Of a stretch of DNA of 64,000 nucleotides, positions 1 to 43,312 are shown piece after piece. The translations under genes and the position numbers were made by a program. Positions within the stretch are counted from its first letter, which is position 1. Every line of letters starts with the position of its first letter. The stretch spans positions 5,952,001 to 6,016,000 of the forward strand of contig CM069154.1 in the NCBI GenBank assembly GCA_035221665.1, given 5' to 3'. Origin of the DNA: Okamejei kenojei (Eukaryota). The notes below the pieces were generated by a model. That model made no database searches. It was not told where the DNA came from and worked only from the letters and a program-made list of their open reading frames with translations.

Positions 1-362
1 GAAGCAGGGTGGGAGGAAGAGTAGTCCAGGTAGCTGTGGGAGTCAGTTGGTTTGTAGTGGATGTAGATCAGGAGTGTATCACCTGCAATAGAGATGGTGA
101 GGTCAAGGAATGGTAGGGAAATGTCGGAAATGGTCCAAGTGTATTTGAGTGCCGGATGGAAGTTGGTGGTGAAATGGATGAAGTCGGTCAGTTGTGCGTG
201 GGTGCAGGAGGTGACACCAAAGCAGTCGTCGCTGTAACAGAGGTAGAGGTCGGGGATGGGTCCCTGGTACGCCGAGAACAAGTATAGTTCGACGTACCCA
301 ATAAAAAGGCAAGCGTAGCTGGGGCCCATGCGTGTGCCCATAGCTACGCCTTGTGTTTGGAA
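1..362 (-). mobile_element. Penelope-like retroelement RT fragment (paralog of 18601-18962)
   Basis: Minus strand reads QTQGVAMGT.MGPSYACLF, a PLE RT motif; collinear with 18601-18962. Confidence 0.85.
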
Positions 363-805
363 ATAGGGCATTTGGCCGTTTCAGACAAATGCATTCACAT
401 GATTCCTGTGTCAATCCTATCTTTATTTTCCCTACTTTCACATCAACTACCACTACCGTCCAACACCCTCCCTCCCCGCCCCACCCCACCCATTCTTCAC
501 AGATTCAGCCGCTCTCCTGTACACACGGGCAGCTTACAACTGGCATGTGTTTGGGAGCTGGAAGGAAACTGGAGAATTTAAATGAAACCAACACAATTAA
601 AGGCTAATCATACAGACCACACATAGACAGCAGTACATGTCGTGGCGTTGTGAGGCTGAGGCTGTGCCACTGTGCCTCAGGTCAATACTCTCATGCATTT
701 AATGCTAGTGAAAGGAAGGCACAACTTTCTCCCAATTAAAGCATTCCCAATCAAAACTCCAGCAATTAGTACATTGTAACTTTAATTGGAAACAGAGTGG
801 TTTAC

Positions 806-2350: not shown

Positions 2351-3480
2351 CTGTGGGAAAGGAGCAAACAGTCAGACACTGAGTGAACATCTGAAAATCA
2401 AAACACTCGCCAATATTCACCATCTCTGTATCTTAGCCAAAGCCGGCAGGTTGGAATCTGACCCATCCATCTACATAGAAGTCATACAGTGTAGAAACAG
2501 GCCCTTCGGTCTAACTTGCCCGCACTGACCAACACGCCCAATCTGCACTAGGTCCCCACCTGACCTTTCTTGGCCCTTAACCCTCTAAACTTATCCTATT
2601 CATGTACCTGTCCAAATTTTTCTTAAATGTTGCAAGAGTACCTGCAATAACTACTTCCGTCTGCAGTTCGCTTCATCTACCTACCAACCTTAGTGTAAAA
2701 ACGTTACTCCCCAGACACTTGATAAATTACTCCACCCTCATCTTAAATCTATGTCCTCTGGTTCTCGATTCCCCTGTGTATGCACAAACGCATTTATGAA
2801 GTAAATCGACAGGGACTCACTCCAGTACAGATAAGGACAATGTCCCAGCTCAGATATTGCATTTCAAAGCGACAGCCAAATTGCCCGTCAGAAAGCTCCT
2901 TCTCCTCACAATCCATTTACCAGATATGTACATCTCTGTGTCTCTCCATCCTCCCAGCTGCCAGAACAACCATGTCTGCCACTGTACCAGTACACAGCAG
3001 TACCATCTCTATTTGTTTTGTATTTCCAGCATCTGCAGTATTTTTAATCTGAAACTCTGCCACAAATCTACAATACCAACATTCAAACACTTCATTAATG
3101 CAACATTATCACTATCAACAACTTTTTAATTTCCTTGTATAAAATTGTTGATAGTGATACTGTTGCACTAATGAGACGTGTGAATGGCGGTATTGTAGAA
3201 TTGTGTTTAGGGAGCAAATGGGAAAGTGGAATAACATAGAACTAGTGTGACCGGTGATCGCTAGTCGGTGTAAACTCATTGGGCCAAAGGATCCGTTTCC
3301 ATGTTGCATTTGTAAACTACAACTAAATATCCGGGTGAACCTTTTCTGTAACCTCTCCAAACCTCTCACTTCTTTTGTTTTATAAAGCGGGGACCAGAAC
3401 TGTGCACCAGACTCCCACCTAACAAATGTTTTGTGTGGATGCCAAAGTGGAGACATCAAGTCACTCGCTGAGAAACCTAC

Positions 3481-11514: not shown

Positions 11515-11893
11515 CGCCGCATCTGCTCCCAGGATGAGGTGTTCCACACCAGGTCATCACAAATGGCCTCATTCTTCAGAGAACGGGGATTCCCCTCCCC
11601 CACTATTGATGAGGCTCGCACCAGGGTCTCCTCCATACCCCGCAACACTGCCCTCTCTCCCCATTCCCCCACTCGCAAACAGGGCAGAGTCCCCCTGGTC
11701 CTCACCTTTCACTCCACCAGCCGGCAAATACAACATATAGTCCTCCGCCAGTTTCGCCAAAAAAAACCAGTCTGAAGAAGGGTCTCGGCCCGAAACGTCG
11801 CCTATCTCCTTCGCTCCTTAGATGCTGCTGCACCCGCTGAGTTTCTCCAGCTTTTTGTGTACCCTCGATTCTCCAGCATCTGCAGTTCCTTCT
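11515..11893 (+). mobile_element. Penelope internal fragment fused through an A-run to a hammerhead-bearing pLTR segment
   Basis: RRICSQDEVFHTRSSQMASFFRERGFP is near-identical to the 17771-18970 element; pLTR starts at 11768. Confidence 0.85.
11772..11799 (+). ncRNA. Minimal type I hammerhead ribozyme motif
   Basis: CTGAAGA-A-GGGTC TC GGCCC-GAAAC GTC: CUGANGA core, stem II, GAAA, GUC cleavage triplet. Confidence 0.75.
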
Positions 11894-12261
11894 TTAAAAA
11901 TCTGGTCTCATTTCCTCGTCTCCCCGCTTACTGTGTGGAGAATACCCAAAGTAATCCTTGAGTCTTTCCGAACTTTATGGTGGTTACTCCGTTATTGCAG
12001 GTCACCATTTTTTATTATCAAACAACATCCTTAACAGTTCTTTCATGAGCGGGGTGATAGTGACAATTCAGACTGAGGAAAGCAACACAATGTATTTTCA
12101 GTTTCACACCCCGTTCTTTGCAAGCTGCAACTCAACCATTGTGTCCTGCACAAGATTAGACTTTCCACTAGTTTAGTTTAGAGATACAGCGCGGAAACAG
12201 GCCCTTCGGCCCACCAAGTCCACACTGACCAGCGTTCGCCGCACATTAACACTACCCTAGC

Positions 12262-15190: not shown

Positions 15191-18100
15191 CTGCAAAAGA
15201 TAATGTGAAGTCATCAGTCTCATTTGACCCGACCGCTCCCAACACAATGCTACCTGGAAGATGGACCCCAACGAATCCACACCGGGCACTGAAATCCACT
15301 CTGCACACGTGCAAACTGACAAAACCTCGTGATATCATCTGCATTGAGATTTGGTTTAACTTCAGGATATGAAAACATGCATGGTTTTTGTTTCTATCAA
15401 TGGACAGGGTATTTGAAAGCATTAATGGAAACCGTTTGGATACATTCGGCGATGAAAAGTGATTGCTTTGGTCAGGGGGTGTTGAATCCATGGATTTCAT
15501 TCCCACAGGAGGCTGTGGGGGCCAAGCGAATTCACACTGGAGATGCTGCCTGTCTCACTGAGCTACTCCAGCATTTTTGTATGTATCCAAATCAATTGAT
15601 ATTTTTAAGGGGGAGATTTTGATATTCTTGATAAATAAGGATGTCAATGGTTATGGGGAGAAGGCAGGAGAATGGGATCGAGAGGGAAGAATAGATCAGC
15701 CATGATTGGGGGCGGATTAGATATGATGGGCTGAATGGCCTAATTCTGCTCCTATCATTTATGACCACGATGACAATAAAACCTACCTTAGAGCCTCTTG
15801 TGAACACCGCGGTTGAGATACTCCAGATCACAAGCAGGAGAAAGAGCAGCCAGCGCCCCACTCTCCATGAGATGTAACTGGGCAGAGGGCAAGAGATACA
15901 GAATCAATGGGAGGAAATTAGACGGTTTATCTTTGAAGCATTTACCTGTATAGTTGCTTCATAATCTTGGTGGTGGAGCGGGGAGAAGCAGCAGAGTAAA
16001 TGGAGATCATCTTGGAGAAAGAAACGGGTGTTGGACGTGAGGGGGTTCGGGGGGGAGGGGTGGGGGGGGACACAACTTATGATCACCAATTATTGACCTC
16101 ATTGCTGGGGCATGGCTACAAGACTGAGTATGAGCGACTACGCAGTTAAATGGATTCGGAGAAGACCGAGAAATAACATGAGATGGAGCAGTGAATCAAG
16201 TGAATACAGAGTAGATAGACACAAAATGTTGGAGAAACAGCGGGAGAGGCAGTATCTCTGGAGAGAATGGAGGAAGATTGCAACCTTCACGTGGTCCGCC
16301 TTTTTTCAACTAGTGGAATCAACTCGACGTGCACAAATGGAAGATCAATTAGAACAAGTTGTCCAACAACTTTAGGCTGTGCACGCCACACAAAAGAAGA
16401 AGAAGACTGGGAATCACGGGAGAGGGAAAATGGGGATGTGGAAGGATATAAAGAACAGTGTAATACCCTAGAAGAATGAAAATCCAGCTGCAAGGAAGAA
16501 TATAATAAAATCCATATGGATAGACAGGAATAATAAAAATGGATCAATTCTAATGATAGAAGGGAGGTGGGGAATAAATATGGAAACGGATGAGGCCAAT
16601 TAATAAAATAAATTAAAAATGATAATGCATAATCTCACACTGGATACTTCTTGGATTAATGCGGTAGGTGTGTGCATGGAGGAAATGTGTTCGAAAAATC
16701 GGTTAAAGGTTCGCTCATAACGGCGTGGCTTTTATGAACATTCTTATTTCCTAACGCAAGCGTAACGCAAGAGTGTGATAGGAAGTCAGATCTATTTCAA
16801 TTGTAATAAGATAAATAACAAAGTGTTCTCACTTTCATGACTATATTATGATTGAATATTTAATGGTTTCAAGTTTCAACGAGTAAAATAGCTTCAGTTA
16901 ACTCATTTTGCTGTATTCGGCCTGATTCAAGACTAGTTTGTCACATTCTGCGCCAGCGATTTTATGATGTTTGACCCCATCAGTTGCAAGGTGTTGCCAC
17001 ACGTGATATCAAGGGGGGGTGTCTTCGCCCATAATTCACAATGCATTTTCCTATCAGCACCACACCAGAGCAAGTCACAGCAAAGCTAAACTGCAAGACT
17101 TGGGTTTGGCAACTATGTTCATCTCACAGCATGGGATGAGATTAGTGATGGAGGTCATGGTGAATACCATAGGGAGCACTCTCTAAAAAGCAGCAAATGG
17201 GGGAACATGTTCTTATCATCCAAGCATGTGCACACCACAATGAGATGTAAACCCAGTGTGATTCCCCTTCTGATGAGTTAACTAATAACTGGTTTGCACG
17301 TAATATTTATTTTATTAAAGAATATTTAAAAGATAAATTTATATTTGGTGTCAGGTTTGAAACATGTACAACAATTGATATGCTTCCTGCTATTTGGGTT
17401 AATTGGATCAAGGACCCGTAGAGAAATACAGTAGAGAAATAGGGCACACAAAAGGCTGGAGAAACTCAGCGGGTGCAGCAGCATCTAAGGAGCGAAGGAG
17501 ATAGGCGACGTTTCGGGTCGAGACCCTTCTTCAGACTGGTCAGGGATCAGGGAAACGAGAGATATAGACGGTGATGGGGAGAGATAAAGAACAATGAATG
17601 AAAGATATGCAAAAAAGTATCGATGATAAAGGGAACAAGCCATTGTAAGCTGTTTGTGGTGTGAAAATGAGAAGCTAGTGCGACTAGGGTGGGGGAGGGA
17701 GATAGAGAGAGAGGGAATGCCAGGGCCCGAGGGCTGAGGGAGAGGTGGGAAGGGGAGGAGACAGCAAGGGTTAACAGAATTGAGAAAATTCAATGTTCAA
17801 GCCCAGAGGATGCAGACTCCCCAAGCGGAATATGAGGTGCTGTTCTTCCAACTTGCGGAGTTGCTCACTCTGGCCGTGGAGGAGGCCCAGGACCGAGAGG
17901 TCGGATATGGAATGGGAGGGGGAGTTGAAGTGCTGAGCCACCGGGAGATCGGCTTGGTTATTGCGGACCGAGCGGAGGTGTTCGGCGAAACTATCGCCAA
18001 GCCTCCGCTTGGTCTGACCAAAATAGATCATCTGGCATCTGGAGCAGCGGATGCAGTAGATGAGGTTGGAGGAGGTGCAGGTGAACCTCTGTCGGACTTG

Positions 18101-21100
18101 GAAGGACTGCTTGGGTCCCTGAAAGGAGTGGAGGGGGGAGGTGAAGGGACAAGTGTAGCATTTCTTGCGGTTGCAAGGGAAAGTGCCCGGGGAAGGGGTA
18201 GAGCGGGAGGGAATGGAAGAATTGACAAGGGAGTTGCGGAGGGAGCGGTCTTTGCGGAAGGCAGACAGGGGGGGAGATGGGAAGATGTGGCGAGTGGAGG
18301 GGTCACGTTGGAGGTGGCGAAACTGGCGGAGGACTATGTGTTGTATTTGCCGGCTGGTGGGGTGAAAGGTGAGGGACCAGGGGGACTTTTCCCTGTTTGC
18401 GAGTGGGGGAATGGGGAGAGAGGGCAGTGTTGCGGGGTATGGAGGAGACCCTAGTACGAGCCTCATCAATAGTGGGGGTGGGGAATCCCCGTTCTCTGAA
18501 GAATGAGGCCATTTGTGATGACCTGGTGTGGAACACCTCATCCTGGGAGTAGATGCGGCGTAGACGGAGGAATTGGGAATAGGGGATGGAGTCCTTACAG
18601 GAAGCAGGGTGGGAGGAAGAGTAGTCCAGGTAGCTGTGGGAGTCAGTTGGTTTGTAGTGGAGTAGGTCAGGAGTGTATCACCTGCAATAGAGATGGTGAG
18701 GTCAAGGAATGATAGGGAAATGTTGGAAATGGTCCAAGTGTATTTGAGTGCTGGATGGAAGTTGGTGGTGAAATGGATGAAGTCAGTCAGTTGTGTGTGG
18801 GTGCAGGAGGTGACACCAAAGCAGTCGTCGATGTAACGGAGGTAGAGGTCGGGGATGGGGCCCTGGTATGCCGAGAACAAGGATTGTTCGACGTACCCAA
18901 CAAAGAGGCAAGCGTAGCTGGGGCCCATGCGTGTGCCCATAGCTACGCCTTGTGTTTGGAAATAGGGCATTTGGCCATTTCAGACAACTGCATTCACATG
19001 ATGGTACACAAAAAGCTGGAGAAACTCAGCGGGTGCAGCAGCATCTAAGGAGCGAAGGAGATAGGCGACGTTTCGGGTCGAGACCCTTCTTCAGACTGGG
19101 AAGTCTGCATTCACATGATTCCTGTGTCAATCCTATCTTTATTTTCCCTACTTTCTCATCAACTACCACTACCGTCCAACACCCACCCTCCCCCGCCCCA
19201 CCCATTCTTCACAGATTCAGCCGCTCTCCTGTACACACGGGCAGCTTACAACTGGCATGTGTTTGGGAGCTGGAAGGAAACTGGAGAATTTAAATGAAAC
19301 CAACACAATTAAAGGCTAATCATACAGACCACACATAGACAGCAGTACATGTCGTGGCGTTGTGAGGCTGTGGCTCGACAGGCTGTGCCACTGTGCCTCA
19401 GATCAATACTCTCACGCATTTAATGCTAGTGAAAGGAAGGCACAACTTTCTCCCAATTAAAGCATTCCCAATCAAAACTCCAGCAATGAGTACATTATAA
19501 CTTTAATTGGAAACAGAGTGGTTTACCTTGCAGAGTAATTGGATGTTATCGAATTTTCACAAGAATATTCATGACCTGTTGGAACAAGGAAATGGAAGTC
19601 AAGTTTCACTGCTTTTCACTTGCAGTTGAACAAGTAGGTATGATTTTCCGATGTAAGGAGTTGATAGGCTTAACAGACAGGGTAATGCTTCTTCCGTGTG
19701 ATTTGCAGCAAATGGGAGATGTTATCAAAACAAGCAGGCGTGCTGGTAAAAACTCTGGCGCCAGGTGTAGACGGCACGGTGGCGCAGCGGTAGAGTTGCT
19801 GCCTCACAGCGCCAGAGGCAAGGGTTCGATCCTGACTACGGATGCTGTCTGTACGGAATTTATACCTCCTGCTTGTGACCGCGTGGGTTTTCTCCAAGCA
19901 CTCCAGTTTCCCCGCATTCTGAAGTCGTGCAAGTTGGTTGGTTAATTGGCTTCTGTAAATTGTCCCCATTGAACTAGTGTACTGGTGATTACTGGATGTT
20001 GTGTACTCAGTGGGCCGAAGAGCCTGCTTCCACGATGCATCCATAAACTAATCAAAAGGGTGAAATTTCACTTGAGAGGAGTATTGCTTGGGACGGAACA
20101 TTACACTGATGGGGAGGGGCTGGATAGGGGTTTTATAAAATTCCATGCAGGACAAGTGAGGAAGGGGGAACCTATTACAGGTGTGCAAAACTGTGAGCAG
20201 CATAGATAGGGTATTTTTAGAACATATTTCATGACATGTTGTATTGATAGTACTGAATGGTCAATATTAACACAGTGGACCAAATCTAATACCATCGTCA
20301 AGGAGATAACTGTGGCCACATTTACAATAATATCTGATCCCTTCCCATATTTGAGTGATGGTCTTGTGGAGATGATGGGAAGTGAAAGTGCTTGGACTGA
20401 TGTCACTGCAAACCTAGTTTAAAGCTGTGTAAACATAAGAGGAAGTTCTAGCTGGGAAGTTGGCCTACACCAGCACTGGGAAATCTATTTCTGGAGCCCA
20501 GCAACCACATATTGACCAATGGGCAATAATTCCATCATTTTAATCTTGATGTTAATTAAATAACGTGCATGGGTTTCAGGGTGTTGGGGTTATGGGGAGA
20601 AGGCAGCAGAATGGGGTGAAGAGGGGAAGATAGATCAGCCATGATTGAATGGTTTATTTCTACTTCTATCACTTGTGATCCTATGAACCACCCCACCCCC
20701 ACTTCCCCTTCTTCTCCACATTGCCTCCACTACTTACCAGTGCCGTTGATTTTCACTAGGAAACTGCAGGACACGTCACTGCTGGAGATGGACACATTGA
20801 CCATTTCACTGGATTTTGATCCACGTTGATTTGCGGCTGTGCAATAATATTGATGGTGCTGGTGTTTGAATGATTGACAACGCAGCTCCAGGGCATTGAT
20901 GTCTGAGATCTTTGAATCTACAGATGGGGTATTTTCATACCAGGTGTAGCTAATGGGCAGTGATCCACTGACCGACTCACAGGACACTGTCACTGAGCCC
21001 CCGAGACAGGAGACATTGACTGGTGACACAAATTCAAGCACAGGAACAGACACAAGTTCTGTGGGAAAGGAGCAAACACTGGATGAACATCTGAAAAATT

Positions 21101-42029: not shown

Positions 42030-43180
42030 TTGAAAATGAAAATATGGTTGCTTTCAAATGCTGCACAGCAAAAAAATGGCTGTTGTTGGTGGTGGTAACT
42101 GCTTTCAAAGGCTACACTGCAAAAAAATTGGCTCTCGTTGTTGTTGATAACTGCTTTGAAACGCTGCACCGCAACAACAAAAAAATGGCTGTTGTTGGTG
42201 GTGGTAACTGCTTTGAAAGGCTGCTCTGCAAAAAAATGGCTGTTGTTGGTGGTGGTAACTGCTTTCAAATGGCTGACCTGGAAAAAAATGGCTGTTGTTG
42301 GTGGTGGTAATTGCATTGAAAGTCTGCATTGTAAAATAAAAATGGCTGTTGTTGGTGGTGGTAACTGCTTTGAAAGGATGCACTGCAAAAAAAAAGACTG
42401 TTGTTAGTGGTGGTAACTGCTTTTAAAAGGCTGCACTGGAAAATAAATATGGCTGTTGTTGTTGTTGGTAACTGATTTGAAATGCTGCAACACAAAAAAT
42501 GGCAGTTGTTGGTGGTGGTAAATGTTTGAAAGCTGCACTGCAAGGAAAATGGCTGTTGGTGGTGGTAACTGCTTTGAAAGGCTGCACTGAAAGAAAAAGG
42601 CTGTTGTTGGTGGTGGTAACTGCTTTGAAAGGCTGCACTGCAAAAAAAAATGGCTGTTGTTGGTGGTGGTAACTGCTTTGAAAGGCTGAACTGCAAAAGA
42701 AAATGGCTGTTGGTGGTGATTGTAACTGCCTTGAAAGGCTGCTGAACTAAAAACAAATGGCTGTTGTTGGTGGTGGTAACTGCTTTGAAAGGCTGCTGCA
42801 CTGCAAAAAAATGGCTGTTGTTGGTGGTGGTAATTGCCGTGAAAGGCTGCACTGCAAAAAAAAATGGCTGTTGTTGTTGGTGGTAACTGTTTTGAAAGGC
42901 TGCACTGCAAAAAAAAAATGGCTGTTGTTGTTGGTGGTAACTGCTTTGATAGGCTGCACTGCACAAAAAAAGGCTGTTGTTGGTGGTGTTAACAGCTTTG
43001 AAAGGCTGCAATGCAAAAAAAAAGACTGTTGTTGGTGGTAACTGTTTTGAAAGGCTGCTATGCAAAAAAAAATGGCTGTTGTTGTTGGTGGTAACTGCTT
43101 TGAAAGGCTGCACTGCCAAAAAAAAATGACTGTTGTAGTTGGCAGTAACTGTTTTGAAAGGCTGCAATGCAAAAAAAATG
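42030..43180. repeat. Minisatellite, ~50-bp unit (CTGCAAAAAAAATGGCTGTTGTTGGTGGTGGTAACTGCTTTGAAAGG), roughly 20 copies
   Basis: Tandem periodicity visible directly. Confidence 0.95.
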
Positions 43181-43312
43181 CCTGTGATTTTTGGCCATCC
43201 TACTCAATTCCTCGCCACTCATCAGGTGCAGAGGATTCTTCCTATCAATGAAAAATAAAATTATTATTAGTGTTTTAAAAAATGTTGAGAATCGCTCTCC
43301 TGTCAATCACAC

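Follow-up and report, generated by a model that had tools for sequence, protein, structure and literature searches.

A 102-bp hammerhead-bearing insertion in Okamejei kenojei as a probable run-off product of a Neptune-type Penelope-like element

In this study, we analysed a window of 64,000 nucleotides of Okamejei kenojei DNA (contig CM069154.1, positions 5,952,001 to 6,016,000) and relate a 102-bp insertion within it (19003..19104, minus strand) to the copying of the element from which it comes. We consider it likely that this insert is an abortive run-off cDNA of a young Neptune-type Penelope-like element (PLE), copied from an internal RT start to the 5′ end of the RNA, itself probably a capped start. 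By itself the insert is ordinary, a typical member of the commonest product of its PLE family, and its value lies in the family pattern: the family has left tens of thousands of natural end-points which, if the run-off reading is true, amount to a fossil map of how the element is copied. The type of element is known, and dispersed minimal hammerheads of truncated PLEs, inverted pLTRs and one-sided tails are already on record in the accessible text of earlier work (PMC4209133, PMC8557442, PMC3846280); the new part is the pattern of ends with its fixed edge. Our search of the openly readable literature found no account of run-off or strong-stop PLE insertions with a fixed edge and end-to-end jumps. 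As far as the accessible text of two recent papers goes, the completion of insertion, the origin of pLTRs and inverted ends, the action of hammerheads in vivo and the origin of retrozymes are open questions (PMC11167929, PMC7761336).

The insertion and its duplicated surroundings

Positions in the pLTR unit are numbered from 0, the first C of CTGAAGA, which is the hammerhead's first base. On this scale the insert is a unit running from -5 to +91 plus five unmatched letters at its 5′ end, as judged by comparison with L273, a full-length tandem unit of 3,994 bp, to whose pLTR it is identical at 96 of 97 nt. It lies between exact 15-bp target-site duplications (TSDs), at 19105..19119 on the element's 5′ side and 18988..19002 on its 3′ side, and the paralogous target site at 389..403 carries a single copy of this repeat, differing at the first base, and no insert. 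The earlier note had described both the insertion between direct repeats and the empty site, and both are seen in the sequence. The 13-mer core of the repeat occurs in only three places in 184 kb (the window plus its neighbours), namely the two TSD copies and 389-403.

Self-comparison of the window together with 80 kb of neighbouring DNA revealed a segmental duplication in tandem, repeating every ~18.7 kb at 95-98% identity, which spans positions 1-21343 and ~23 kb upstream of the window and comprises at least two full copies and one partial copy. Since the flanks are 3.7-3.9% diverged while the insert has one mismatch in 97 nt to the full-length unit, the sequences indicate that insertion most likely took place after the duplication, the order that had been proposed for it. 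An older, 5′-truncated copy of the same PLE lies beside the insert (17441..18960, minus strand) and holds the RT core, CX4CxxC linker, GIY-YIG domain, 3′ UTR and hammerhead. It is 96% identical to the young unit, has its own 11-bp direct repeat (17436-17446 and 18959-18969) and is also carried by the paralog. Only 27 bp separate the insert from the 5′ junction of this same-orientation neighbour (18960-18988), by chance or through local targeting.

The duplication supplies empty sites for two insertions. The second, of 385 bp (11516..11900, plus strand), is flanked by a 7-bp direct repeat, is missing from three paralogous sites and is made up of an ORF piece (11516-11759), eight A (11759-11766) and a pLTR unit with tail (11767-11900). 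We read it as a jump that left an RNA at its 5′ end and landed on a 3′ end of oligo(A). A copy at 11768 had been cited as an independent instance of the same 5′ end; it begins one base earlier, at 11767, and is an internal junction of this second post-duplication insertion. An AATACA hexamer, which we take to be a variant polyadenylation signal, stands ~27 nt ahead of the A-run junction, inside the ORF piece (11726-11766).

Within the 102-bp insert, a minimal type I hammerhead core occupies 19067..19094 on the minus strand (CUGAAGA, an unpaired A, helix II, GAAA, a palindromic ACGU and GUC), with a helix I of 2 bp only and a predicted cut between 19067 and 19066. Past this cut follow 64 nt of pLTR (19003..19066, minus strand), so that the description of the insert as a minimal hammerhead with a remainder of pLTR was accurate; their end coincides with the first of two places where 3′ ends recur, and by analogy with the anole element PAc this place would be the first RT start site. 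The 5′ end is ambiguous. The five letters absent from the reference unit (19100..19104, minus strand) precede CCAGT and, together with the last three TSD letters, form a 6-bp fold-back on -3..+2; they may be filler or a micro-inverted arm, or may partly represent a minor 3′-UTR deletion variant, the TTCCCAGT variant being present in L017 and L025. A beginning at -5, or an ambiguous one, counts against an exact run-off edge for this particular insert. Its retention of sequence upstream of the cut implies an uncleaved template, and in this respect the earlier note, which had called for an uncleaved, multimeric or circular one, was right; neither a multimer nor a circle is needed, and the predicted hammerhead is most likely an uncleaved passenger here.

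The element and the ends of its copies

By its sequence, the element is a young Neptune-type PLE. The order in L273 is endonuclease stop, 3′ UTR, hammerhead (0), +92, tail to ~+126, 5′ UTR and an ATG at ~+162. Its frames match RVT_1 (E=2e-6) and GIY-YIG (E=6e-4), both slightly under Pfam's curated cut-offs, and this copy carries stops and frameshifts; a Pfam search with the two frameshifted frames of the window gave no match, nor did a PDB sequence search. As in endonuclease-bearing PLEs, RT is followed by a C-terminal GIY-YIG in one ORF, and the partial tandem organisation, inverted copies and tail typical of PLEs are found as well (the 3,994-bp unit; 65 head-to-head pairs). A CX4CxxC linker lies upstream of GIY-YIG, and a CX2-5CxxC linker at this position is given as the definition of Neptune/Nematis, Penelope/Poseidon being without it, in the accessible text of PMC8557442. 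Neptune is preferred to Nematis because of its reported vertebrate distribution.

Genome-wide, exact anchors number 25,144 for a hammerhead 38-mer and 56,997 for a downstream 33-mer; those in the ORF and 5′ UTR number 869, 463 and 238. For an unselected view of the ends we took the 100 copies that head the list of matches to the downstream anchor, all within the first 4.4 Mb of a single contig, and left out loci picked by ORF or 5′-end patterns; 30 loci of a first similarity search were omitted from the end counts because that search was biased to the query's 5′ letters. The 5′ end fell at -7..+7 in 59 copies, at +8..+46 in 18, at -8..-150 in one and beyond in 22, extension tending to under-measure long copies. 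In the same bins the 87 copies that passed a young-subfamily filter were distributed 50/14/1/22, equivalent to stop rates per nt of 0.046 at the edge, 0.004 downstream and 0.0003 upstream, the edge class being inflated by a small number of copies of older subfamilies whose 3′ UTR is different (L193, L200 and L268, for example, passed the young filter). Thus the preferred 5′ boundary claimed for the unit is borne out, while its form is not a fixed CCAGT: the boundary is spread about -4..+7 and is commonest at -1 to -3. Randomly distributed 5′ ends, named beforehand as the result that would speak against such a boundary, were not found, and the clustering argues against ordinary random truncation of the PLE. 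The -4 class (3,485) consists mostly of older subfamilies with another 3′ UTR. Among 30 near-full-length copies, five start at the same edge (L231, L233, L241, L244 and L256).

The 3′ ends cluster at +90..95 and +123..133, ~35 nt apart. Exact TSDs of at least 8 nt flank 27 of 52 solo edge copies, against 1.7% of shuffled pairs, and the duplication reported for the 102-bp insert is therefore typical of the family; lengths are mostly 9-16 bp. When solo edge copies are pooled, 43 of 68 have such a TSD, and the 25 of 68 that have none count against a run-off origin. The units in the 43 TSD-bearing copies are bimodal in length, with 30 of 87-99 nt and 13 of 127-138 nt.

Under a run-off origin, the element's enzyme would nick the target, and reverse transcription would begin inside the element's own RNA, ~92 nt downstream of the hammerhead's first base. 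Copying would run to the RNA 5′ end, which probably lies at a capped transcription start 1-4 nt ahead of the hammerhead. The run-off product, with a few filler letters between it and the target, would integrate alone, pair head-to-head or jump to an RNA 3′ end. Long copies would have two possible sources: a jump or transfer of this same cDNA to an RNA 3′ end, or a template that includes sequence read through from upstream. The view that the 3′ end sites of the units are RT start sites draws on analogy with PAc, and the distribution of 5′ ends suggests that the RNA physically ends at the edge, probably with a capped start.

Several features of compound copies bear on this mechanism. Of 65 head-to-head pairs, 56 have one arm from each 3′ site (32.3 expected, p=8e-10). 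Related insertions show that the template continued into the 5′ UTR and the ORF start: 18 of 30 5′-UTR-holding copies stop at +189..+393 and none at +159..+188. Half of these copies (15/30) are short partial tandems, and four repeat the same start at both places, two more nearly so.

We take the edge sequence to fit an initiator consensus with A at -3. Five of six single letters added between TSD and element are G, and an extra G also occurs at two jump junctions at -3 (L305, L322), a tiny sample in either case; at full-length L1 junctions an extra G marks the cap (PMC11702581). The letter before AGT in the first 100 listed genome-wide matches, by hand count, is G in 37, A in 41 and T in 22, which counts against a cap-derived G. 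Two further observations count against a strict reading of the edge. Only 19 of 70 direct junctions fall at -7..+7, jump junctions occurring at many other starts too, and ~55 of 97 long copies, by eye, cross the edge without a scar, which requires read-through templates or homology-guided transfer. The 24 RNA runs listed are all assembled contigs; four of them had no peaks of starts or ends, but assembled contigs cannot show starts. Contigs of runs X1 and X2, which may be DNA and from a related organism, contain a go-back joint from ~+268 to -4 (L273:7780 to 7508), of the same kind as the jump junctions.

Alternative origins of the pattern

That the 5′ edge marks an RT stall or an endonuclease cut on a long tandem or read-through RNA, rather than an RNA end, we regard as unlikely, although it survives better than any other alternative. 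DNA nicking by PAc within its own pLTR region has been observed in vitro, and a multi-copy mRNA has been proposed for it in the accessible text of PMC11167929; moreover, tandem 3,994-bp units exist, and the seamless crossing of the edge by long copies is what such templates would yield. Nevertheless, the edge is on the far side of the ribozyme, beyond the point where the RT has already unwound it, and a physical RNA end better fits both the extra G, oligo(A) and other letters at same-edge jump junctions and the partial tandems that end twice at the same start.

It is distinctly improbable, in our judgement, that the ~100-bp unit is an independent retrozyme- or SINE-like element with its own transcripts, mobilised in trans through multimeric or circular RNA. 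Its fixed ends, TSDs and very high copy number would suit such an element; non-LTR retrozymes derive from PLE pLTRs, and rotifer pLTR sequences can mobilise other DNA in trans, according to the accessible text of 10.64898/2026.07.22.740005 and PMC3846280, respectively. Two-hammerhead mini-tandems (L305, L319, L322) could in addition serve as its non-autonomous sources. The counts and structures point the other way: there are 13 head-to-tail short junctions genome-wide against 56,997 anchors, and the solo unit carries a single hammerhead whose helix I is 2 bp long, lacks the sequence to ~+189 that all 18 truncated 5′-UTR copies keep, and has two length classes instead of a single master length. 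Nor does it have private variants, the four commonest young variants, at the four variable sites compared, being common to short (31/13/11/2 of 72) and long copies (24/10/18/3 of 59). Successive junctions in L447 and L449 differ by a base between passes, and this genomic heterogeneity fits jumps between ends of a linear RNA better than passes around a covalent circle. The earlier note had put forward a self-standing unit with a multimeric or circular template and mobilisation in trans; this is not supported, given the scarcity of head-to-tail dimers, the shared variants, the templates that reach the 5′ UTR and ORF, and the variable junctions.

A splicing origin appears very improbable. It would make -1..+159 an exon that opens behind a 3′ splice site at -1 and closes at a 5′ splice site immediately ahead of the start codon, and the units would be templated by spliced RNAs or back-spliced circles. 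A pyrimidine tract plus CAG precedes -1, AAG|GTATG precedes the ATG, and we take both sites to match the splice-site consensus. The exact joined junction was found three times, at two loci, in older subfamilies, but none of the three matches belongs to the young subfamily and none of 30 young 5′-UTR copies has the joint; a 2-nt microhomology jump yields the same junction. Besides, the TSDs usually lie directly against the element, no exon intervening, and a distant TSD was seen in only 2 of 25 TSD-less copies. The two loci, L294 (G000:C3:2.61 Mb) and L295 (C16:47.18 Mb), are copies of older subfamilies with an exact +159 to -1 joint, possibly a spliced or back-spliced 160-nt hammerhead exon. 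Two other candidates were rejected: a branch-point stop at -5/-6, where few ends fall, and capture of a host exon, again in view of the distant TSD in just those 2 of 25 copies.

It is barely credible that the empty site at 389..403 is secondary, whether by loss of the unit through recombination between the 15-bp repeats or because the paralog is a mis-assembled haplotype: the 27 bp between the insert and the older copy's 5′ junction could suggest one compound event, but that copy has an 11-bp TSD of its own and is 4% diverged against 1% for the insert, and the paralogs are ~4% apart, with several independent indels and a third partial copy.

The hammerhead and relation to known systems

Minimal hammerheads are found in metazoan PLE pLTRs, mostly as dispersed single motifs (Cervera and de la Pena 2014, PMC4209133). 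An Rfam scan assigned no hammerhead family to our sequence at E<=1, and we therefore base the ribozyme call on motif anatomy in comparison with that work: a conserved core, an unpaired base at 9/10.1, G10.1-C11.1 and a palindromic helix III, a helix II variant in the family retaining pairing. Helix I has 2 bp, as in the D. virilis variant, rather than the 4-5 bp expected of a minimal PLE hammerhead, and the hammerhead fold was not the MFE structure, either as a monomer (z=+0.6) or as a cofolded pair. Like the hammerheads in the accessible text of PMC4209133, ours have the unpaired base before helix II, the palindromic minimal helix III and a weak helix I, and occur as thousands of single copies with close opposite-strand pairs, ascribed there to truncated PLEs; that text reports no fixed 5′ edge, TSD statistics or run-off origin.

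Starts at the predicted cut are rare. Seventeen of 30 inspected copies, chosen from 275 pattern matches, start at +28, which scales to ~156 true starts among the 275; the -3 and -2 classes hold 3,626 and 4,126, figures only roughly comparable with it as the patterns differ. Among 185 copies not selected for this start, none has it, and an enrichment of starts at the ribozyme cut is not supported. L435 (G000:C1:164171569-164174603, around 1450-1570), a single selected case, is one TSD-flanked insertion of -17..+27, ~31 A, a G and +28..+92, with the poly(A) exactly at the predicted bond, a sequence that suggests that an RNA was cleaved in vivo and may then have been A-tailed before a template jump. 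Head-to-tail arrays starting at the ribozyme cut were observed at L447 (G000:C2:137.65 Mb), L448 (C3:58.47 Mb) and L449 (C3:131.46 Mb), made of +28..+90 (up to four units) or +28..+222, with 1-2 variable added letters at each joint.

The closest experimental counterpart is PAc, a Poseidon element of Anolis, for which unprocessed RNA was inserted and 5′ truncation of the template shortened the product (Frangieh et al. 2024, PMC11167929). In the accessible text of that study, its two internal RT start sites bound a 30-40-nt tail, which resembles the two 3′ end clusters of our family, and it primes both strands from an uncleaved RNA substrate, to which the head-to-head pairs and the uncleaved insert correspond. 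PAc needs downstream sequence to its ORF position +172 (equivalent to ~+180 here), to be compared with the floor of +189 in our copies. Unlike PAc, the present element has the Neptune/Nematis linker and an ORF start at ~+162, outside the ribozyme rather than inside it. The RNA 5′ end, solo run-off insertions and end-to-end jumps are not defined in the accessible PAc text. In D. virilis, a start site and an internal promoter have been placed in the upstream pLTR of the PLE, as given in the accessible text of PMC2377424.

Endonuclease-bearing PLEs in general, as described in the accessible text of two studies, share with our family 5′ truncation, partial tandems, inverted 5′ copies, a tail that is often one-ended, 8-10-bp TSDs and solo pLTRs (Craig et al. 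2021, PMC8557442; Arkhipova et al. 2013, PMC3846280). They differ from it in that units of ~100-135 bp dominate here and have a fixed 5′ edge; in addition, rotifer solo pLTRs are said in the latter text to be without TSDs and to result from recombination, whereas solo units here are often TSD-flanked.

Metazoan non-LTR retrozymes, going by the accessible text of PMC7761336 and 10.64898/2026.07.22.740005, are likewise derived from PLE pLTRs, non-coding and equipped with a type I hammerhead, and are defined by at least two tandem hammerhead units and a circular RNA. The insert at 19003-19104 is a monomer, and tandems are rare here, as the 13 head-to-tail junctions attest; the variants that short and long copies have in common are, at the four sites compared, not those of an independent lineage. 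Four mini partial tandems of 200-330 nt (L305, L319, L322 and L324) do have the two hammerheads of a retrozyme tandem, without an ORF body. They could be non-autonomous sources, and L305, L319 and L322 may show how PLE-derived retrozymes are born.

In LTR retroelements, minus-strand strong-stop DNA is made by priming near the RNA 5′ end, run-off and transfer to the RNA 3′ end, and template jumping is known for non-LTR RTs. PLE run-off would differ from strong-stop synthesis in that nicked target DNA would serve as the primer and the short product is itself integrated. Taken together, these parallels allow a broader and more tentative picture, which as a whole we would not put at even chances. 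A protein dimer would use the two internal sites of a single RNA to prime both strands of the target and would copy to the capped 5′ end, giving an integrating strong-stop cDNA; long copies and pLTR tandems would form only by an end-to-end jump to an RNA 3′ end; and jumps on short RNAs would yield the two-hammerhead mini-tandems as newborn retrozymes. The rare cut-site starts, one with poly(A), would record cleavage in vivo, and the insertions would be a genome-wide fossil record of the whole PLE cycle. The family pattern itself gives exact predictions: RNA 5′ ends should map to -4..+2, RT should start near +92 and +126 and use one of these sites per strand, template sequence should be needed to ~+189, and cleavage at +27/+28 should be rare.

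Two further repeats were observed in the window. A 145-bp imperfect palindrome at 3061-3205, with weak, sub-threshold matches to miRNA families, is probably a MITE-like repeat, and a tandem array at 42048-43194 has a period of ~53 bp and 81-84% identity between copies.
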